DNA of 64,000 bases. Origin: Alcanivoracaceae bacterium. GTDB lineage: Bacteria; Pseudomonadota; Gammaproteobacteria; Pseudomonadales; Alcanivoracaceae. Location of the stretch: assembly GCA_023146255.1 (NCBI GenBank), contig JAGLCJ010000016.1, forward strand, positions 14,478-78,477. Direction: 5' to 3'. The notes under the pieces are model-generated. The model saw nothing but the letters and a program-made list of their open reading frames with translations, did not search any database and was not told where the DNA came from. A program made the position numbers and the translations under genes. Positions 26,794 through 41,424 of this stretch are shown here, one piece after another. Position 1 is the stretch's first letter. Every line of letters begins with the position of its first letter.

Positions 26794-26858
26794 GAGCGAC
26801 CGAGCGGCCGCGAAATCTTTCTATCAGGAAATTTCGCCGCCGATCGACGGCTCCTGCA
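26791..26858. repeat. Family C REP pair (inverted), copy 1
   Basis: TAGGAGCGACCGAGCGGCCGCGAAAT ... ATTTCGCCGCCGATCGACGGCTCCTGCA. It starts on the kinase stop codon and ends 6 nt before the VWA gene stop. Confidence 0.8.
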
Positions 26859-26863
26859 AAAAT

Positions 26864-28252
26864 TCAGCCTCGGGTCAGATCGCGCAGCAAGCGGTCAACA
26901 AAACGCTCCAGCCCGGCCAGATTGGAACAGGGCAGTGCATCACGACAGTAAGGCTGATACAGCGGCATCACCGAATCGCCACTGCCCCAGCGTCCACGCG
27001 ACTCCGGATTCAACCAGAACACCTGCCGGCAACGACGGCCGATATGGCCCAGCAGATGCTGCTCAGCGGGCAGCTCATTGTTGCGGGCATCACCGAGAAT
27101 AATCACGGTGGTGCGCTGATCCAGATCAGCTTCGCACTGATCGAGAAAATCCCTGAGCATGCTGCCGTAATCCGTGCCGGAACCGGCATAACGATCCATC
27201 ACCTCATTAATGGCCTGATCCGACCGCATGCTATTGAACAGTGATGTCACCTCACCAAACCGTGAGGCAAAGGCAAAGCTGCGCACCGACGGCACCACAT
27301 CATTCACCGCATAAAGAAACATCAGCAGAAAACGCGCCGCGGCACTGACCGAACTGGAGACATCACAGATCACCATCAGCTTCGGCTTCTGAATGCGCCG
27401 GCGACGCCACACTAGAGACGCCGGCACACCACCATGCTTCAGTGCCATCACCGTGGTACGGCGACCATCCAGCTGACCACGCCGGGCGCGGCGCTGGCGC
27501 CGGCCGTGCTTGCGGGCCAGACGCCGGGCCATCTTCTCGACCTGCTGCCGGACATCCCGAAACTCTGCCAGCGTGCGCAAATTAGCCTCGCGCAGCATCT
27601 GTTCACGCAACTGCCGGCCCTGCTCGCGGGCCTGAAGTACAAACTGGTCTGCCACATATTCGCGCACCGCTTCGCGCAACTGGTTACGGGCACTGCGCAA
27701 CTGCGCCGCCAGGCGCTGATCCTTTCGGCGCTCGCTGTTATCCAGCGCAATGATTTCCTGATCCAGCGCTTCACCGCCAAGCGCCTGAATGATGCGCCGG
27801 CCATACAAGCCCTTCTGGGTAATCACTCGGATATTGTCGAGGCCGACATTACGCGCGGCCTCCGCCATTTGCCGGCTCAGCTGGGCACTATCGTCCGCCA
27901 GCAGCTGCTGTCCCAGCGCCGAGGAAGCGCCGGCCCCGGCGCCGCCCTGCTGACCTGGCATCATGTCACGCAGGCGATCCAGCAATGACGGCGACGGCTG
28001 CTCCGACTGCGCTGCCGAGGCCGCCGGCGGCATACCATCGAAACGGAAAAAATCATCGAAACATTGGTCGAACGCCAGCTTGTCATGCTCGCTTTTCGCC
28101 AGCACCAGCGATAACCCCTGCTTCAGCGCTTCACGGTTCTGATAGCCGAGCAATGCCGTGACCTGCACTGCATCGAGCGTTTCAGCTGGCGACACTGGCA
28201 GTTCGGCGCCGCGCAGCACCTTGACGAAGCGGCCGATCACCTGCTCCGACAT
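26864..28252 (-). CDS. VWA domain protein (CoxE-like)
   Basis: 462 aa with a C-terminal VWA domain carrying the MIDAS motif DxSxS (ICDVSSSVS). It lies immediately downstream of a MoxR ATPase. Confidence 0.8.
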   Translation of the reverse strand: MSEQVIGRFVKVLRGAELPVSPAETLDAVQVTALLGYQNREALKQGLSLVLAKSEHDKLAFDQCFDDFFRFDGMPPAASAAQSEQPSPSLLDRLRDMMPGQQGGAGAGASSALGQQLLADDSAQLSRQMAEAARNVGLDNIRVITQKGLYGRRIIQALGGEALDQEIIALDNSERRKDQRLAAQLRSARNQLREAVREYVADQFVLQAREQGRQLREQMLREANLRTLAEFRDVRQQVEKMARRLARKHGRRQRRARRGQLDGRRTTVMALKHGGVPASLVWRRRRIQKPKLMVICDVSSSVSAAARFLLMFLYAVNDVVPSVRSFAFASRFGEVTSLFNSMRSDQAINEVMDRYAGSGTDYGSMLRDFLDQCEADLDQRTTVIILGDARNNELPAEQHLLGHIGRRCRQVFWLNPESRGRWGSGDSVMPLYQPYCRDALPCSNLAGLERFVDRLLRDLTRG

Positions 28253-28261
28253 CAGCGCATC

Positions 28262-29176
28262 TCACTTGAGCAGGGAAGGCAAATCATCACGCACCTGACG
28301 GATATCTTCTTCATGCTTGAGTAGCAGGTTGAGGGTGCTATCCACCAGTGCTGGCTCAAGACTCTCGACATGCAGTAACAGCAACGCCCGAGCCCAGTCG
28401 ATGGACTCGGAAATCGCCGGCTGCTTTTTCAAATCCAGGGTGCGCAACTTCTGGACAAAATCCACCAGTTGCTTGCGCAGTGCCTGCGGCGCTTCCGGCA
28501 CCCGAGCGGCAATAATCTGCTGCTCCAGCGAGGCATCCGGATAGGGGATATACAGATGCAGGCAGCGGCGTTTTAACGCATCGGACAGCTCGCGACTGTT
28601 GTTACTGGTCAGAAACACCAGCGGCTCATGGCGCGCCCTGACCGTGCCCAGCTCGGGGATGGAAATCTGGTAATCGGACAACAACTCCAGCAGAAACGCT
28701 TCAAACTCCTGGTCAGCCTTGTCGACCTCATCAATCAGCAGTACCGGCGATTCGTCAGCGCGTAACGCCTGCAACAGCGGCCGCGGCTCGAGAAAGGTTT
28801 CCGAATAGAATGCATCGCCGAGATCGCCCAGCCGACTCATCGCTTCTTCAAGGCCGCCCGCGCCGTCAAGCTTGCCGGCAAACTGCTCACGCAACAGCTG
28901 GGTATAAAGTAACTGCTTGCCATACTTCCATTCGTACAGTGCCCGCGCCTCGTCAAGGCCCTCATAGCACTGCAGACGAATCAGTGGTGCTTCGAGAAAG
29001 GCGGCACTGGCCTTGGCCAACTCGGTTTTGCCGACGCCCGGTGGACCCTCCACCAGCACCGGCTTGCGCAGTTGCGCAGCGAGATAGACCGCCATGGCAA
29101 TCTGGTCATTGCAGACATAGCCCTGACGGGCGAAGCTGTCGCGCACTTCAGCGACGGACAGGATACGGGTTTTCAT
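28262..29176 (-). CDS. MoxR-family AAA+ ATPase (CoxD-like)
   Basis: Trimmed to ATG 29176 (MKTRILSVAEV). Walker A GPPGVGKT and Walker B VLLIDEVDKA. Confidence 0.85.
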   Translation of the reverse strand: MKTRILSVAEVRDSFARQGYVCNDQIAMAVYLAAQLRKPVLVEGPPGVGKTELAKASAAFLEAPLIRLQCYEGLDEARALYEWKYGKQLLYTQLLREQFAGKLDGAGGLEEAMSRLGDLGDAFYSETFLEPRPLLQALRADESPVLLIDEVDKADQEFEAFLLELLSDYQISIPELGTVRARHEPLVFLTSNNSRELSDALKRRCLHLYIPYPDASLEQQIIAARVPEAPQALRKQLVDFVQKLRTLDLKKQPAISESIDWARALLLLHVESLEPALVDSTLNLLLKHEEDIRQVRDDLPSLLK

Positions 29177-29222
29177 GCGGAGCCCTTTTCCGGAACAGGC
29201 CGTCAGTCTACAGGGAATCGGA

Positions 29223-29888
29223 ATGAGCCGGATAACCACGATATTTTTTGACTTCGGCGGCGTGATCGCCGACAGCCCGTTTGCCAACCTGTCGCGCTAT
29301 GAACGCGAGCGCGGCCTGCCAGCGGATTTCATCCGCCTGACCAACGCCGACAACCCGGACAACAATGCCTGGGCCTGCTTCGAACGCGGCGAAATTGATC
29401 TGGACGAGTTCGACCGCCGCTTCCGCGCCGAAACCTGCGCCCGCGGCCGCGAAGTCCCCGGCCGCGACCTGATCCCGCTGCTGCAGGTCGAGGTGCGCCC
29501 GGCGATGATTGCCCTGCTAGACCAGCTGCGCAGCAAGGGCCTGCGCCTCGCCTGCCTGACCAACAACCTGCCAGTCGGCGACGGCCCCGGCATGAGCCAG
29601 GACAGCGCCCATGCCGGCAAGGTCGCCGAGGTGCTGAATCGCTTTGAGCTGGTGCTGGAATCCTGCCGGGTTGGCGCCCGTAAGCCGGAACCGAAGTTCT
29701 TCCAGCTCGCTTGCGAAAAAATGCAGGTAGCGCCGGATGAGGTCGTCTTTCTCGACGATCTTGGCATTAATCTGAAGCCGGCACGGGCCATGGGAATGAC
29801 CACCATCAAGGTGGTATCTGCGGAGCAAGCGATAGAAGCCCTGGCAGCTCTGAACTCAACTCAGAAGGATTTCACACTTAAGGTTTGA
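29223..29888 (+). CDS. HAD-superfamily hydrolase (epoxide hydrolase N-terminal/ACAD10-like phosphatase type)
   Basis: Trimmed to ATG 29223. Motif I-like IFFDFGGVI and a C-terminal VVFLDDLGINL. Confidence 0.75.
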   Translation: MSRITTIFFDFGGVIADSPFANLSRYERERGLPADFIRLTNADNPDNNAWACFERGEIDLDEFDRRFRAETCARGREVPGRDLIPLLQVEVRPAMIALLDQLRSKGLRLACLTNNLPVGDGPGMSQDSAHAGKVAEVLNRFELVLESCRVGARKPEPKFFQLACEKMQVAPDEVVFLDDLGINLKPARAMGMTTIKVVSAEQAIEALAALNSTQKDFTLKV

Positions 29889-32821: not shown

Positions 32822-32882
32822 CCTGCAGGAGCGGCCGACCGGCCGCGAAAGCTCTTCGCGGTCGATCGACCGCTCCTACAGG
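32822..32882. repeat. Family C REP pair, copy 2
   Basis: CCTGCAGGAGCGGCCGACCGGCCGCGAAAGC TCTTCGCGGTCGATCGACCGCTCCTACAGG. It overlaps the TetR stop codon and is probably a terminator-like hairpin. Confidence 0.8.
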
Positions 32883-33550
32883 GCGTCCTTCTGCACCGTC
32901 AGAACGTCACCAAGGCGGGCGCCGCTGAGCAGGGCGCGGGCGCCGAGAAACACCATCGACAGCTGCACCACCACCCGGTCGCGACCGGCGCGGCGCTGGG
33001 CCGGCGTCATGTCCAGCGCCAGAATGCCGTAGCCGAACATCACCGCCACCGCCGCCTCGGCGGCGCGCAGGTCGTCCACCGGCGGCAGGTTGCGGTGCTC
33101 GCCGACGCTGCGGACATCGTCCGCCAGCTCCTCCACCAGCAGCTGCAGCTCACGGTGCACCCGGCGACGAATACTGGCCGAGGTGCCGAGGCGTTGCTGC
33201 ACCAGCAGACGGAACTCGGCCTCGTTGCCGGCCAGATAGGCCAGAAAGCGGTCGACCAGATCGCGTACCCCACTGGCCGGATCGGCTACGATCAGTTCGC
33301 GCCGGCCCTGGCGCATGGCATTGCGCAGTCGGAAGCAGGCCTGATCCACCAGCGCCTGACCAAGGCTGTCCATATCGGGAAAGTGGTTATACAGCGACGG
33401 CGCCGCCAGCTCGGCCTGCCGCGCCACCTCTCGCAGGCCGAGGCTGTCGAGACCGCGGCCGCTGACCAGCAGCTGCATCGCCGCATCGAGGATCTTTTGC
33501 CGGGTCAGGGCCTTGCGTTCGGCTCGGTTCAGGGTCATGACCTGCTCCAC
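32876..33550 (-). CDS. TetR family transcriptional regulator
   Basis: 224 aa with an N-terminal HTH (LGLREVARQAELAAPSLYNHFPD). It is divergent from the fatty acyl-CoA reductase gene. Confidence 0.85.
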   Translation of the reverse strand: MEQVMTLNRAERKALTRQKILDAAMQLLVSGRGLDSLGLREVARQAELAAPSLYNHFPDMDSLGQALVDQACFRLRNAMRQGRRELIVADPASGVRDLVDRFLAYLAGNEAEFRLLVQQRLGTSASIRRRVHRELQLLVEELADDVRSVGEHRNLPPVDDLRAAEAAVAVMFGYGILALDMTPAQRRAGRDRVVVQLSMVFLGARALLSGARLGDVLTVQKDAL

Positions 33551-33853: not shown

Positions 33854-35866
33854 ATGAATTACTTTGTCACTGGCGCCACCGGCTTTATCGGTCGCTTTCT
33901 GCTTGCCCGCTTGCTGAACCGCAAGGACAGTCGCGTTTTCGCCCTGATCCGTCCCGGTTCCGAATACAAGCTGGATGCCCTGCGCCGGCGCCTGAATGTC
34001 GAGCCGGAGCGTCTGGTTGGCATCAAGGGCGACCTGACCAAAAAAGTGCTCGGCGTCAGCAAGCGCGATCGCGACGATCTCGCCGCCGCGAAAATTGATC
34101 ACTTTTTCCATCTGGCGGCAATCTACGATCTCACCGCCGATGAAAACCAGCAGCGCTATACCAACATCGAAGGCACCCGCAACGCCCTGCGTCTTGCCGA
34201 GGAGCTGAACGCCGGCTGCTTCCATCACATCAGCTCGGTGGCCGCCGCCGGCCTGTATGACGGCACCTTCCGTGAAGACATGTTCGATGAAGCTGGCGAG
34301 CTGGCCGACGCCTACCTGCAGACCAAACACGAAGCCGAAGCGCTGGTGCGACTGGAAGCGAAACTGCCGTGGCGCATCTACCGCCCGTCCATGGTGGTTG
34401 GCCACTCGCAGACCGGCGAGATGGACAAGATTGATGGCCCCTATTACTTCTTCAAACTGATCCAGAAACTCAGCGACGTACTGCCGCCCTGGGTGCCGCT
34501 GCTCGGCATCGAAGGTGGCCAGTTCAATATTGTCCCGGTGGATTTTGTTGCCAGCGCCATTGATCACATTGCCCATGTGCCGGACCGCGACAGCCAGTGC
34601 TTCCACCTGACTGCCGACCGTCACTACAGCGTCGGCGAAGTCATGAACATTTTCGCCGGCGTTGCCGATGCACCGAAAATGCCGGTGCGTATCGACAACA
34701 GCGTGTTCGAAGCGGTGCCGGGCATGGTTCGCAAGGGCATCAGCTCGCTGACTCCGGCAAAGTTTTTCCTGCATCAGGCTCTGGAAGGCCTGGATATTCC
34801 CGAGTCGGCACTGAAGTTCCTCAGCTACCCGACCAGTTTCGACAACAGCAACGCCAAGGCCGCGCTGAACGGTAGCGGCATTGAAGCACCGGAACTGGAA
34901 GCCTATGCCCAGCTGCTTTGGGATTACTGGGAAAACCATCTGGACCCGGACCGTGACTCGCGCGAAGACGACAACGCACCGTCAATCAGCCTGGAAGAGC
35001 GCGTTGCCGGCAAGGTGGTGCTGGTCACCGGCGCCACCTCCGGTATCGGCAAGGCCGCCGCGCTGAAACTGGCCCGTGCCGGCGCCATCGTGCTGGTGGT
35101 GGCCCGTACCGCAGAAAAGCTGGAAGAAACCCTGCACGAAATCGAACAGCTCGGCGGCAAGGCGTTCTCCTACAGCGCTGACGTATCGCACCTGGACGAC
35201 TGCGACCGCCTGATCAAGCAGATTATTGCCGACCATGGTCAGGTCGATATTCTGGTCAACAATGCCGGCCGTTCCATTCGTCGCTCGGTGGAGCATTCAT
35301 TTGATCGCTTCCACGATTTCGAACGGACCATGCAGCTGAACTACTTCGGCGCCCTGCGCCTGATCATGCAGCTGCTGCCGTCCATGACCCAGCGTGGCAG
35401 CGGTCACATCATCAACATCTCCTCGATTGGTGTCCTGACCAACGCGCCGCGTTTCTCGGCTTATGTTGCTTCCAAGGCGGCGCTGGATGCATTCACCCGC
35501 TGCGCGGCGTCGGAGCTTGCCCACCACGGCATTCGCTTCACCACCATCAACATGCCGCTGGTGCGCACGCCGATGATCGCGCCGACCAAGATCTACAACC
35601 ATGTGCCGACCATCAGCCCGAATCAGGCCGCCGACATGATCTGTGATGCCATCGTGCGCCAGCCCAAGCGGATCGCCACCAGTCTCGGTATTGTCGGCCA
35701 GGTGATGCACTTCCTGACCCCGAAGATCACCGAAACCATCATGAATACCGGCTACAAGATTTTCTCCGACTCGTCTGCGGCACTGGGCCAGAAAGAGAAA
35801 ACCCCGAAGCGGATCAGCCGCGAGCAGCAAGCCTTCTCACGGCTGTTCAAGGGCATCCACTGGTAA
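33854..35866 (+). CDS. Two-domain fatty acyl-CoA reductase (N-terminal NAD-binding reductase domain plus C-terminal Acr1-like SDR)
   Basis: 670 aa. N-terminal Rossmann VTGATGFIG with YxxxK (YLQTK). The second domain has VTGATSGIG, NNAGRSIRRS, FDRFHDFERTMQLNYFG, YVASK and PLVRTPMIAPTKIY, and ends ...LFKGIHW as Acinetobacter Acr1 does. The architecture resembles the roughly 660-aa Marinobacter alcohol-forming reductase. Confidence 0.85.
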   Translation: MNYFVTGATGFIGRFLLARLLNRKDSRVFALIRPGSEYKLDALRRRLNVEPERLVGIKGDLTKKVLGVSKRDRDDLAAAKIDHFFHLAAIYDLTADENQQRYTNIEGTRNALRLAEELNAGCFHHISSVAAAGLYDGTFREDMFDEAGELADAYLQTKHEAEALVRLEAKLPWRIYRPSMVVGHSQTGEMDKIDGPYYFFKLIQKLSDVLPPWVPLLGIEGGQFNIVPVDFVASAIDHIAHVPDRDSQCFHLTADRHYSVGEVMNIFAGVADAPKMPVRIDNSVFEAVPGMVRKGISSLTPAKFFLHQALEGLDIPESALKFLSYPTSFDNSNAKAALNGSGIEAPELEAYAQLLWDYWENHLDPDRDSREDDNAPSISLEERVAGKVVLVTGATSGIGKAAALKLARAGAIVLVVARTAEKLEETLHEIEQLGGKAFSYSADVSHLDDCDRLIKQIIADHGQVDILVNNAGRSIRRSVEHSFDRFHDFERTMQLNYFGALRLIMQLLPSMTQRGSGHIINISSIGVLTNAPRFSAYVASKAALDAFTRCAASELAHHGIRFTTINMPLVRTPMIAPTKIYNHVPTISPNQAADMICDAIVRQPKRIATSLGIVGQVMHFLTPKITETIMNTGYKIFSDSSAALGQKEKTPKRISREQQAFSRLFKGIHW

Positions 35867-35890: not shown

Positions 35891-35929
35891 AACGGAAAAG
35901 GCCCGACGATTTGCCGGGCCTTTTCCGTT
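35891..35929 (+). terminator. Rho-independent terminator after the reductase gene
   Basis: AACGGAAAAGGCCCG-N9-CGGGCCTTTTCCGTT. Confidence 0.75.
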
Positions 35930-36039: not shown

Positions 36040-38229
36040 ATGGAAATCAAGGTCAACTATCTCGACAACCTCCGGCTCGAGGCAAAGTTTGACGACTTTA
36101 GCGTCATCTCGGACCAGCCGATCCGCTACAAGGGCGACGGCTCGGCGCCCGGTCCGTTTGACTATTTCCTGGCATCATCGGCGCTGTGCGCGGCTTACTT
36201 CGTCAAGGTGTATTGCAACACCCGCAATATCTCCACCGACAATATTCGCCTGTCGCAGAACAACATTATCGACCCGGAAGATCGCTACAAGCAGATTTTC
36301 CGGATTCAGGTAGAGCTGCCGGAAGACATCAGCGACAAGGATCGTCAAGGTATTATCCGCTCGATAGAGCGCTGCACCGTGAAAAAAGTCGTGCAGGCCG
36401 GACCGGATTTTCAGATCGAGACAGTGGAAAATCTGGACGCCGACACTCAGGCGCTACTGACGGTAAAGCCGGATGGCAATACCCGCACCTTTATCGAAGG
36501 CAAAGACCTGCCACTGGAACAAACCATTGCCAATATGAGCGCCATTCTGGCCGGTCTTGGCATGAAGATCGAAATCGCCTCCTGGCGCAATATCGTGCCG
36601 CATGTATGGTCACTGCATATTCGTGATGCGGCATCACCGATGTGCTTTACCAACGGCAAGGGCGCCACCAAGGAAGCGGCACTGTGCTCGGCGCTGGGCG
36701 AATTTATTGAGCGCCTGAGCTGCAATTTTTTCTACAACGACCAGTATTTCGGTCAGGACGTCGGCAACAGCGAGTTTGTCCATTACCCGAACGAGAAATG
36801 GTTTCAACCCGGCGCCAAAGGCAAGCTGCCCAAAGGCATTCTCGATGAGCATTGCCTGTCAATCTATGACCCCGACGGCGAGCTGCTCGGCACGCATCTG
36901 TTTGATACCAACTCCGGCGCGCCGGAACGCGGCATCTGCGCTATTCCCTATGTGCGTCAGTCCGATGGTGAAACGGTCTACTTTCCGTCCAACCTGATCG
37001 AAAACCTGTATCTCAGCAACGGCATGAGCGCCGGCAACACCTTGCCGGAAGCCCAGGTGCAATGTTTATCAGAAATCTTCGAGCGGGCCGTCAAAAAAGA
37101 GATTATCGAAAATGAAGTGGCACTACCGGATGTACCGGAGGCCGTGCTGAACCGCTACCCGCATATTCAGGAAGGTATCAAAGCCCTGGAAGCCCAGGGC
37201 TTTCCGGTGCTGGTCAAGGATGCCTCCCTCGGCGGCCAGTTTCCGGTCATGTGTGTTGCCCTGATGAATCCGAAAACCGGCGGTGTATTTGTCTCCTTCG
37301 GCGCCCATCCCAATTTGCAAGTGGCACTGGAGCGCAGCCTCACCGAGCTGCTGCAGGGCCGCAGCTTCGAAGGCCTGAATGATCTGCCACCGCCCACCTT
37401 CAACAGCATGGCCGTCACCGAACCAAACAATTTCGTCGAGCACTTTATCGATTCCAGCGGCGTGGTGTCCTGGCGCTTTTTCAGTGCCCGCTCGGATTAC
37501 GAATTCTGTGACTGGGATTTCAGCGGCACCACCGAAGAAGAAGCCGCCACCCTGTTTGGCATCCTCAAGGACATGGGCCATGAGTGTTATATGGCTGTGT
37601 TTGAAGATCTCGGCGCACCGGTGTGCCGGATTCTGGTGCCCGGTTACTCCGAGATCTACCCGGTCGACGACCTGATCTGGGACAACACCAATATGGCGCT
37701 GGAGTTCCGCGAGGACATCCTCAACCTTCACCGTTTAAGCGACGACGAGCTGGCGGCTCTGGTGGAGCGATTGGAAGAAAGCGATCGTGACGCCTACATG
37801 ACAATCATCACCCTGATCGGCATTGAGTTTGATGAGAACACCGTCTGGGGTCAGCTCACCATTCTGGAGCTGAAACTGCTTATCTATCTGGCACTTGGCC
37901 AGCTGGACAATGCGCTGGAACTGGTAGAAGCCTTTCTCCAGTTCAACGACAACACAGTGGAGCGAGGGCGTTTTTATCAGGCCGCGCAGGCAGTGCTGGA
38001 AGTCACGCTGGATGAAGACCTGGCGCTGGAGGATTATCTGCCCAGCTTCCGCCGCATGTTTGGTGATGACATCCTTGATGCCGCCATCGGCTCGGTCAAC
38101 GGCAGCGTGCGCTTCCATGGCCTGACGCCCACCAGCATGGCACTGGAAGGACTCGACAAGCATCAACGACTGATTGAAAGCTATAAAAAACTGCATGCGG
38201 CGAGGCAGGCAATATTCGCAGCTGTTTAA
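36040..38229 (+). CDS. OsmC domain / YcaO domain fusion protein
   Basis: 729 aa. The N-terminal about 130 aa are OsmC/Ohr-like with two Cys (SSALCAAYF, IERCTVKK). The central YcaO domain has SNGMSAGNTLPEAQVQCLSEIFERAV. The C-terminus is a helical, TPR-like region. Confidence 0.85.
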   Translation: MEIKVNYLDNLRLEAKFDDFSVISDQPIRYKGDGSAPGPFDYFLASSALCAAYFVKVYCNTRNISTDNIRLSQNNIIDPEDRYKQIFRIQVELPEDISDKDRQGIIRSIERCTVKKVVQAGPDFQIETVENLDADTQALLTVKPDGNTRTFIEGKDLPLEQTIANMSAILAGLGMKIEIASWRNIVPHVWSLHIRDAASPMCFTNGKGATKEAALCSALGEFIERLSCNFFYNDQYFGQDVGNSEFVHYPNEKWFQPGAKGKLPKGILDEHCLSIYDPDGELLGTHLFDTNSGAPERGICAIPYVRQSDGETVYFPSNLIENLYLSNGMSAGNTLPEAQVQCLSEIFERAVKKEIIENEVALPDVPEAVLNRYPHIQEGIKALEAQGFPVLVKDASLGGQFPVMCVALMNPKTGGVFVSFGAHPNLQVALERSLTELLQGRSFEGLNDLPPPTFNSMAVTEPNNFVEHFIDSSGVVSWRFFSARSDYEFCDWDFSGTTEEEAATLFGILKDMGHECYMAVFEDLGAPVCRILVPGYSEIYPVDDLIWDNTNMALEFREDILNLHRLSDDELAALVERLEESDRDAYMTIITLIGIEFDENTVWGQLTILELKLLIYLALGQLDNALELVEAFLQFNDNTVERGRFYQAAQAVLEVTLDEDLALEDYLPSFRRMFGDDILDAAIGSVNGSVRFHGLTPTSMALEGLDKHQRLIESYKKLHAARQAIFAAV

Positions 38230-38252: not shown

Positions 38253-38346
38253 GTAGGAGCCGTCGATCGACGGCGAATAGCTTCGCGGCCGATCGGCCGC
38301 TCCTACAGAAAATCTACACGGCCGGAGCCGTCGATCGACGGCGAAG
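38253..38346. repeat. Family C REP cluster, copy 3 (three units)
   Basis: GTAGGAGCCGTCGATCGACGGCGAA, the inverted unit TTCGCGGCCGATCGGCCGCTCCTAC, and a third unit GGAGCCGTCGATCGACGGCGAAG. Confidence 0.8.
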
Positions 38347-38370
38347 TTAGCTGGCACTTTGCCAGACCGC

Positions 38371-38396
38371 AAAGAGGCGCTTCCAGGCGCCTCTTT
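38371..38396 (+). terminator. 10-bp perfect hairpin downstream of the YcaO gene (weak terminator candidate)
   Basis: AAAGAGGCGC-TTCCAG-GCGCCTCTTT with no long T tract. The stem resembles the katG terminator. Confidence 0.35.
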
Positions 38397-38587
38397 CGCC
38401 TCCATCTCAGCCGATATCCTCACCGCCATTCTCGCCAATCTCCCCCCTGCCTTTATCAGAACGTGATCTGAATCAAGACCCGATTAATTCTGGCTATCAA
38501 CGCTATGCAAAGCCTGCGTTAGGGTGATATGAACACCATGATCTATAAGTGGTGTTATTGCGCAGACAGCCAGACAAGCTGTGCTAA

Positions 38588-40870
<2,283 letters not shown>

Positions 40871-40959: not shown

Positions 40960-41424
40960 TCAGCGTGCAAGAAGGTCTTTCGCCGCCTTGAGGCTGTCGC
41001 CCTCTTTTGCCAGCTCTTTTCTTGCAAATGCCTCAATGGCTTTTTCATGCGCATAGACATAGGCAAAAAATTTCTTGTCCTCACCTTCGGCATGATCTTT
41101 CAGCCGCAGGAATTTTTCCTGAAAAGGCTGAGTGGCATCGCGCACCAGCCTCATGGCCAGCCACCAGGGCATCAGGCCCAGCGCGGCGCCCTCGGCCTTG
41201 CCTTTTAACGCCCAACCGGTTGGCTCGACAATGGACTGACCGGTCGCCGTCATGTAATCAAGGTAACGTTGCAGCGTCTGCTCCTCCAACGCCTTGAGCA
41301 CCAGCCACTTCTGCTTGCGCTCTGCGTTTCTTGTCAAACGCGCAGCGATGTCAAAAACCGCAGAGCCGTAAACCTCGGACTCATGGATGTGTTGCAAGTC
41401 CTTCTTGTACTCGGGATAAGTCAT
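40960..41424 (-). CDS. Hypothetical helical protein (154 aa)
   Basis: Balanced composition. Its ATG overlaps the stop of the upstream alpha/beta hydrolase gene by 4 nt. I recognise no family. Confidence 0.55.
   Translation of the reverse strand: MTYPEYKKDLQHIHESEVYGSAVFDIAARLTRNAERKQKWLVLKALEEQTLQRYLDYMTATGQSIVEPTGWALKGKAEGAALGLMPWWLAMRLVRDATQPFQEKFLRLKDHAEGEDKKFFAYVYAHEKAIEAFARKELAKEGDSLKAAKDLLAR

Follow-up and report, generated by a model that had tools for sequence, protein, structure and literature searches.

The 64,000-nucleotide stretch considered here (contig JAGLCJ010000016.1 of an Alcanivoracaceae bacterium; hereafter the window) carries at 36040–38229 on the forward strand a complete coding sequence, an open reading frame (ORF) that runs from an ATG through its stop codon and specifies a protein of 729 amino acids (aa) in which an OsmC, a YcaO and a YcaO_C domain are fused. 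All three domains scored above their Pfam gathering scores, namely OsmC at aa 32–127 (37.2 bits; gathering score 27.5), YcaO at aa 205–536 (236 bits) and YcaO_C (PF18381) at aa 553–723 (241 bits, covering profile positions 1–171 of 172), and the three-part anatomy and the length of 729 aa given in a first-pass annotation of the window were thereby borne out. We place the OsmC-like domain at aa 1–135 (36040–36444, +), followed by a variable inter-domain linker at aa 136–150 (36445–36489, +), the ATP-dependent amide-activating YcaO domain at aa 151–550 (36490–37689, +) and, from aa 551 to aa 729 and including the stop codon, a helical, tetratricopeptide repeat (TPR)-like YcaO_C dimerization domain (37690–38229, +). 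The last part had been described as a helical tail; helical it is, but it corresponds to the known YcaO_C/TPR dimerization domain (PF18381) of E. coli YcaO (EcYcaO), whose C-terminal region is a 150-residue TPR domain mediating dimerization (PMC13063428). The whole protein has a computed isoelectric point (pI) of 4.55, its YcaO part one of 4.52 and its OsmC domain one of 4.69.

Two curated NCBIfam models recognize the protein. TIGR03549, an equivalog named OsmC domain/YcaO domain-containing protein, was matched at 1468 bits (cut-off 900), with protein residues 2–723 covering model positions 1–722 of 723, and the word orphan, which the first-pass annotation had used, does not suit a member of a curated equivalog with thousands of members. 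NF040716 ('YcaO_for_S12'), a model built on EcYcaO, was matched over aa 150–719 at 891 bits (cut-off 700), a score that we take to indicate orthology to EcYcaO and not as evidence for the uS12 function in its name. The model for azoline-type enzymes of the thiazole/oxazole-modified microcins (TOMM), TIGR03604, reached 37 bits against a cut-off of 219, and the McrA-type model TIGR03266 reached 38 bits against 365. In a search of the PDB, aa 148–727 aligned to EcYcaO (4q84) with an E value of 4e-180, the YcaO_C part being aligned through residue 585, and the same region is 48.8% identical to authentic EcYcaO over 580 residues. The residues of the ATP/Mg2+ site (S217, E221, E224, N333, E345, E348, R349, R432 and E436) are the same as in EcYcaO and invariant in 81/81 fused sequences. 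Among them, E348 (37081–37083, +) is the equivalent of EcYcaO E202; the remaining positions follow the work on 4q84. These matches make the window protein an E. coli-type, 'non-TOMM' YcaO that is extended by a further domain at its N-terminus.

A backbone thioamide at Met82 of the E. coli ribosomal protein uL16 was described by Watson et al. (eLife 2020; PMC7550191), who named YcaO as the candidate enzyme, and Rice et al. (Biochemistry 2026; PMC13063428) found that this modification requires EcYcaO in vivo. In vitro, EcYcaO thioamidates uL16 with ATP and Na2S, full-length folded uL16 being the only form that is modified; unfused YcaO binds uL16 with a dissociation constant (Kd) of about 10 nM, and thioamidation by the EcYcaO-E202A variant, from which our choice of this residue was taken, is incomplete (PMC13063428). 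Of the 12 uL16-interface positions assayed in that study, 7 are identical or conservatively substituted in the window protein. The enzymes of K. pneumoniae (KpYcaO) and P. aeruginosa (PaYcaO) modify their own uL16 upon co-expression in E. coli lacking ycaO and roxA. The same study presents a low pI (4.4 for EcYcaO) as a signature and predictor of uL16-modifying YcaOs, argues that a static substrate constrains the enzyme, the YcaOs that act on ribosomally synthesized peptides that are post-translationally modified (RiPPs) being described as fast-diverging, and reports that TfuA is not encoded near any suspected uL16-type ycaO. It leaves the physiological sulfur donor unidentified, the sulfide concentration used in vitro being non-physiological, and the word 'OsmC' does not occur in its main text.

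The architecture of PaYcaO can be read from the primers in the supplementary table of that paper (PMC13063428). The forward primer for PaYcaO encodes (M)VEVKVNFL, matching the start of the OsmC domain in the window, MEIKVNYL, while the primer for KpYcaO encodes MTQTFIPG, which aligns at window residue 148. We recovered the PaYcaO gene by searching metagenome contigs with the gene-specific part of the primer, the engineered NdeI ATG being dropped; the native start codon is GTG. The search returned six loci, and in five of these both PaYcaO primers matched exactly and lay 2,251 nt apart, giving a gene of about 756 codons. At locus L005 (2952–5234, −) the primer-delimited ORF begins ...VEVKVNFLDNLRLEARFDDF..., ends ...AIRKRK and contains a full OsmC domain; over 725 residues, OsmC domain included, its product shows 77% identity to the window protein. 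By these matches the validated PaYcaO is identified as an OsmC–YcaO fusion and the window protein as its orthologue; since the primers delimit an OsmC–YcaO ORF with 77% identity, a substrate has already been assigned to the fusion family. The first-pass annotation had regarded the function of this fusion class as not established, and here it is overtaken by the literature, in which PaYcaO is validated on uL16 (PMC13063428); its suggestion of an in-trans action on some housekeeping protein agrees with that result, uL16 being the target of the validated orthologue.

PaYcaO of strain PAO1 (Q9I2H8; probably locus tag PA1926) shares with the window protein the order OsmC, YcaO, YcaO_C and identical cysteine motifs in the OsmC domain (SSALCAAYF and RCTVKK), and both are encoded by lone genes without a RiPP context. 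They differ at the C-terminus, where a basic extension of about 27 residues (...GGLKPRRMAIRKRK; end AIRKRK) is present in PaYcaO but missing from the window protein and most other fused members, and in their neighbours, which for PaYcaO (L005) are metE and a cobN/exbD-like cluster. EcYcaO (P75838; PDB 4q84, 4q85 and 4q86) aligns with the window protein end to end over the YcaO and YcaO_C domains, has the same ATP/Mg2+ residues and a similar pI (4.38 vs 4.55), and like the window protein has neither a partner gene nor TfuA; it lacks the OsmC domain, however, its residue 2 aligning at window residue 148 within the linker, and its gene lies beside focA-pflB.

The fused form is widespread. A word-indexed protein search yielded at least 8,000 candidates, and the best 120, which were examined, all have the three domains and are at least 80% identical to the window protein; they come from Alcanivoracaceae, Marinobacter, Halomonas/Vreelandella, Idiomarina, Microbulbifer and others, the closest among the matches listed being a metagenome-assembled genome (MAG) of Alcanivoracaceae with 95% identity. 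A scan of one genome per species returned at least 600 related stretches, and the gene is fused in all of the best 80, at 76–84% identity, in Pseudomonas, Acinetobacter, Pseudoalteromonas, Shewanella, Colwellia, a Lysobacterales MAG and Betaproteobacteria such as Duganella, Thauera and Dechloromonas. The conservation of the fused protein across loci L011–L090 was judged by eye to be about that of a ribosomal protein, a comparison that does not separate constraint from horizontal transfer and in which some of the Betaproteobacteria are MAGs. In an exhaustive search of protein representatives clustered at 50% identity, the full-length fused form amounted to about one representative (P0121, 60% identity), next to unfused proteins of about 570–600 aa that start at query residue 148–155 and are 35–48% identical. 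A neighbour-joining tree of the YcaO region placed 15/15 fused sequences in a single clade, which is that of PaYcaO, contains no unfused member and lies nearest to the unfused enzymes of the Enterobacterales/Pasteurellales type. The fusion thus has a single origin and is very common across Gamma- and Betaproteobacteria. Other long architectures of E. coli-type YcaO also came to light: an N-terminal methyltransferase domain is found in P0216 (1472 aa), about 690 aa at the N-terminus of P0200 (1189 aa) are without annotation, and P0233 (921 aa) has two matched YcaO stretches. No sulfur-related domain was found in these three proteins, only a methyltransferase or nothing recognizable.

The N-terminal domain retains the active-site residues of the OsmC/Ohr thiol peroxidases. 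A MAFFT alignment with authentic E. coli OsmC (P0C0L2) brings into register R29 (codon 36124–36126) with R39, D41 (36160–36162) with E50, the peroxidatic cysteine C50 (36187–36189) with C59, and the resolving cysteine C112 (36373–36375) with C125, and together with C59 (36214–36216; all codons on the + strand) these residues are invariant in 81/81 fused sequences. The first-pass annotation had noted that both characteristic cysteines are kept, and with Arg and acid also in place on proper alignment the catalytic set is present. Asp41 conservatively replaces the Glu50 of E. coli OsmC; the window domain further differs in having Thr for Pro after the resolving cysteine, in its extra invariant Cys59 and in being fused and not free-standing. 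Cys59 lies nine residues past the peroxidatic cysteine and aligns with Leu68 of E. coli OsmC, which has no counterpart to it. The closest solved sequence to the N-terminal domain is the OsmC domain of PDB 9wo1 (E 9e-7), which probably belongs to the esterase–OsmC fusion family; pairwise BLAST of the N-terminal domain gave no significant match to E. coli OsmC and a marginal one to YhfA. By these comparisons the domain represents a divergent OsmC subfamily. Across the 81 fused sequences, its mean top-residue frequency (0.906, with 52% of positions invariant) is the highest of all segments, the YcaO domain reaching 0.874, the YcaO_C domain 0.805 and the linker 0.61. Judged by residue conservation, purifying selection acts most strongly on the OsmC domain, which is clearly functional.

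The genomic surroundings suggest a gene that stands alone. Upstream, a hairpin at 35891–35929 (+; dG −31.2 kcal/mol, z −4.98), read directly from the sequence, follows a short-chain dehydrogenase/reductase (SDR) gene, which it probably terminates, isolating ycaO transcriptionally. The first-pass annotation had called a terminator here; the hairpin is real, but a strict terminator scan did not call it and a clean T-tract is absent. Downstream, the stretch 38253–38399 (+) holds units resembling repetitive extragenic palindromic (REP) elements and a terminal hairpin, with folds of dG −50 (z −4.0) and dG −20 (z −3.7), and separates ycaO from katG, which begins about 420 bp downstream on the same strand. 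Two identical REP-like units (38256–38277, + and 38324–38345, +), with an imperfect inverted copy between them, fold into a long hairpin and are followed by the terminal hairpin (about 38369–38399, dG −20), as that annotation had described. The palindromic unit GGAGCCGTCGATCGACGGCGAA is present four times in the window, where chance would predict 0 copies; the further copies lie at 26833–26854 (−) and 32855–32876 (−).

Domain and profile scans within about 10 kb on either side of ycaO found no E1/ThiF-like, TfuA, ThiS or RiPP-type gene, and neither flank contains a credible precursor ORF or an Rfam element, in keeping with what had been noted for E1/ThiF, TfuA and precursors. The accompanying statement that no dehydrogenase is present also stands: a nitroreductase-family gene 4 kb upstream was considered as a TOMM dehydrogenase and rejected, the gene being generic and without a SagB/McbC match. 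The first-pass annotation had also proposed a survey of neighbourhoods and a link to katG. The survey found the fused gene in all of the best 80 loci and no conserved neighbour: all-against-all clustering of ORFs gave no recurrent family, the commonest being present in 12/80 and at variable positions, and neither a KatG homologue nor a homologue of any other window neighbour was found within 8 kb of the fused gene in the 80 related loci (0/80). In the 95%-identical relative (L007) the TetR and SDR genes are likewise found upstream, but a BNR-repeat gene takes the downstream place that katG has in the window, and the contexts in Marinobacter and Vreelandella are unrelated to that of the window. 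With katG near the fused gene in 0/80 loci and absent beside its closest relative, the adjacency is incidental and coupling to katG was rejected; ycaO is monocistronic and functionally unconnected with katG.

Some features of the surroundings may be recorded here. The mechanical ORF of katG spans 38615–40870 (+) from a TTG at 38615, and its NCBIfam alignment begins at residue 19–22; the true start is probably the ATG at 38649, which is preceded by a GGGAGA motif. Just upstream of katG, a small ORF of 29 aa (38529–38618, +) is rich in Cys, Ser and Thr and has a purine-rich AGGGTGA just before its ATG, read as a possible Shine–Dalgarno site; it is probably spurious or related to the katG leader. 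A FabR-like TetR regulator (32876–33550, −) is divergent from a protein combining NAD_binding_4 and adh_short domains (33854–35866, +; PRK07201, 956 bits), a pair that is syntenic in L007, and we suspect that the latter is a fatty acyl-CoA or aldehyde reductase, as in hydrocarbon-degrading Alcanivoracaceae. At 26864–29287 (−), a CoxE-like von Willebrand factor A protein beside an AAA ATPase (AAA_5 and generic AAA matches) looks like a chaperone pair of the MoxR/CoxD–CoxE type unrelated to ycaO, and the ORFs at 40960–41424 (−; 154 aa) and 29297–29809 (−; 170 aa) gave no Pfam or NCBIfam match.

We consider it highly probable that the gene is a Pseudomonas-type, OsmC-fused orthologue of EcYcaO that encodes a uL16 thioamide synthase; orthology and conservation of the catalytic site are seen directly in our comparisons, and it is from these that we infer the activity of the window protein itself. 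The protein would then be a stand-alone, dimeric, highly acidic and ATP-dependent enzyme that binds folded uL16 and, at the position corresponding to E. coli Met82 close to the peptidyl-transferase centre, turns the amide of the backbone into a thioamide. The mechanism established for the YcaO family starts with attack of a sulfur nucleophile on the amide carbonyl, followed by phosphorylation of the oxyanion by ATP and loss of phosphate. The pI of 4.55 matches the acidic signature and thus supports the assignment to uL16, the 76–84% identity across orders fits the static-substrate argument of PMC13063428, and the absence of any conserved neighbour points to a housekeeping gene that stands alone, which is what an enzyme acting in trans on a ribosomal protein would lead one to expect.

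Several points weigh against this reading or against attaching importance to the OsmC module within it. The uL16 gene of the organism (rplP) lies outside the window, so that the target loop is out of view, and PaYcaO was assayed only with its OsmC domain attached (PMC13063428). As PaYcaO was active in E. coli, and enzymes lacking the domain function too, OsmC may be irrelevant to thioamidation itself. AlphaFold2 modelling, proposed in the first-pass annotation for the domain interface, did yield models, but at a predicted local distance difference test (pLDDT) score of 65 and a predicted template modelling (pTM) score of 0.61 for the full-length protein, and a pLDDT of 60 for the N-terminal domain alone, they are too poor for judging either the interface or the geometry of the cysteines. 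A Foldseek search with the latter model had an OsmC-family structure, 2pn2, as its top match, which was weak (template modelling score 0.31, E 4e-3). Moreover, in the esterase–OsmC fusions both cysteines are conserved and peroxidase activity was not detected (PMC5113044), a result which argues that conserved cysteines do not prove catalysis.

As regards the substrate, the competing explanations fare poorly. The name still used in NCBIfam and RefSeq would make the protein an accessory factor for the RimO-dependent beta-methylthiolation of uS12 at Asp88, and the NF040716 score of 891 bits against a cut-off of 700 carries that name with it. Strader et al. reportedly co-purified EcYcaO with uS12 and found that modification of uS12 dropped from 99% to 84% when ycaO was deleted. 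However, RimO is sufficient to modify a uS12 peptide in vitro, deletion of rimO abolishes the modification, and the AlphaFold3 complexes of EcYcaO were not confident with uS12 (interface pTM (ipTM) score 0.31) or with RimO (0.16), as against 0.81 with uL16 (PMC13063428); the name of the hidden Markov model reflects an older annotation and not a tested activity. A direct role in uS12 modification with RimO is thus now disfavoured by the literature, and we regard it as very unlikely for the window protein. That the protein is a RiPP maturase, installing azolines, amidines or thioamides on a precursor encoded elsewhere in the genome, is scarcely credible to us, even though the YcaO superfamily is best known from RiPP pathways and the 29-aa ORF at 38529–38618 is rich in Cys, Ser and Thr. 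That ORF lies in the katG-proximal region, which is absent from all related ycaO loci (n=80), the TIGR03604 and TIGR03266 scores (37 bits vs 219 and 38 vs 365) fall far below their cut-offs, there is no partner of the E1/RiPP recognition element (RRE) type, dehydrogenase or TfuA nearby and no conserved neighbour in 80 loci, and the acidic pI and the cross-order identity of 76–84% are the opposite of the fast-diverging RiPP YcaOs (PMC13063428). A parallel outside the uL16 enzymes is the YcaO that, with TfuA, modifies a glycine of McrA in methanogens and likewise performs ATP-dependent backbone thioamidation of a folded protein; it belongs to another clade and has another substrate, and the window protein has no TfuA or ThiS nearby and scores 38 bits against the cut-off of 365 for this type. 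Siderophore production was reported in 2026 to be lowered in an E. coli mutant lacking ycaO, a pleiotropic phenotype that offers no rival mechanism.

What the OsmC module contributes is a separate question, and the literature search found no paper on the role of this domain in the OsmC–YcaO fusion. Since the enzymes of E. coli and Klebsiella lack it, the domain is dispensable for the basic chemistry, and no separate OsmC-like gene was found beside the unfused ycaO in five unfused neighbourhoods or in E. coli. We do not think that it marks a different substrate. With low confidence we propose instead that it assists the sulfur chemistry in cis as a thiol accessory, which could take the form of a two-cysteine donor turning persulfide into sulfide, a guard against peroxide for oxidation-sensitive sulfur intermediates, or a redox gate. 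The most specific version, which is possible though on balance improbable, is that Cys50 and Cys112, perhaps with Cys59, deliver in cis the sulfur for thioamidation of uL16 in bacteria that live aerobically. The low-pKa 'peroxidatic' cysteine would take up or attack a persulfide, for instance from IscS or a low-molecular-weight persulfide, and the 'resolving' cysteine would then form a Cys50–Cys112 disulfide, releasing or transferring a sulfide equivalent beside the ATP-activated amide. Two-cysteine persulfide chemistry is found in the tRNA thiolases ThiI and MnmA, which would parallel such a relay.

Alternatively, the OsmC domain might be purely structural and carry out no thiol chemistry, serving as an extra acidic docking surface for uL16 or the pre-50S particle or as a second dimer contact. 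OsmC proteins occur as obligate dimers. YcaO is a dimer as well, and with a pI of 4.69 the OsmC domain shares the acidic character of the surface that binds uL16 (PMC13063428); the OsmC domain of the esterase fusions, which has no detectable catalysis (PMC5113044), would also be in line with such a role. Docking would leave unexplained, however, why three cysteines, the catalytic Arg and the acid are all invariant (81/81), and YcaOs without the domain already reach a Kd of about 10 nM for uL16 (PMC13063428); we consider a purely structural domain unlikely. The first-pass annotation had pointed towards an active hydroperoxide peroxidase, with the backbone modification coupled to peroxide stress and co-regulated with katG, and both the retained, invariant Cys/Cys/Arg/acid set and the position of katG, 420 bp downstream on the same strand, lend themselves to this idea. 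Yet katG lies within 8 kb in 0/80 loci and is absent beside the 95%-identical orthologue, REP units and a hairpin stand between the two genes, and our literature search found no paper tying ycaO to OxyR or peroxide. Moreover, the pairwise similarity to true OsmC is not significant, and the nearest OsmC-fusion family to have been assayed shows no peroxidase activity despite its conserved cysteines (PMC5113044), so that we hold this explanation to be quite unlikely. In the esterase–OsmC fusions (EstRM and relatives), too, a divergent OsmC domain is joined in cis to an enzyme and keeps both cysteines; there the domain is C-terminal, on an alpha/beta hydrolase, and its role was called enigmatic (PMC5113044), whereas in the window protein it is N-terminal.

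Should the proposal of a sulfur relay through Cys50 and Cys112 hold, it would address how sulfide equivalents reach uL16 without TfuA or ThiS, and it would give the OsmC fold a new, non-peroxidase function. Apart from this, our comparison bears on annotation: thousands of such genes in Pseudomonas, Acinetobacter, Marinobacter, Halomonas, Shewanella and others should read uL16 backbone-thioamide synthase, and should be listed neither as orphan RiPP enzymes nor as 'S12 accessory factors'. The substrate being already known, the link of the OsmC domain to the sulfur source is the only new angle. The study that validated the OsmC-fused PaYcaO did so without remarking on the fusion, while leaving the sulfur donor open (PMC13063428). 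As the most conserved part of the protein, with a complete two-cysteine redox site, the OsmC domain is an obvious and inexpensive place in which to seek either that donor or a redox control of the modification near the peptidyl-transferase centre.

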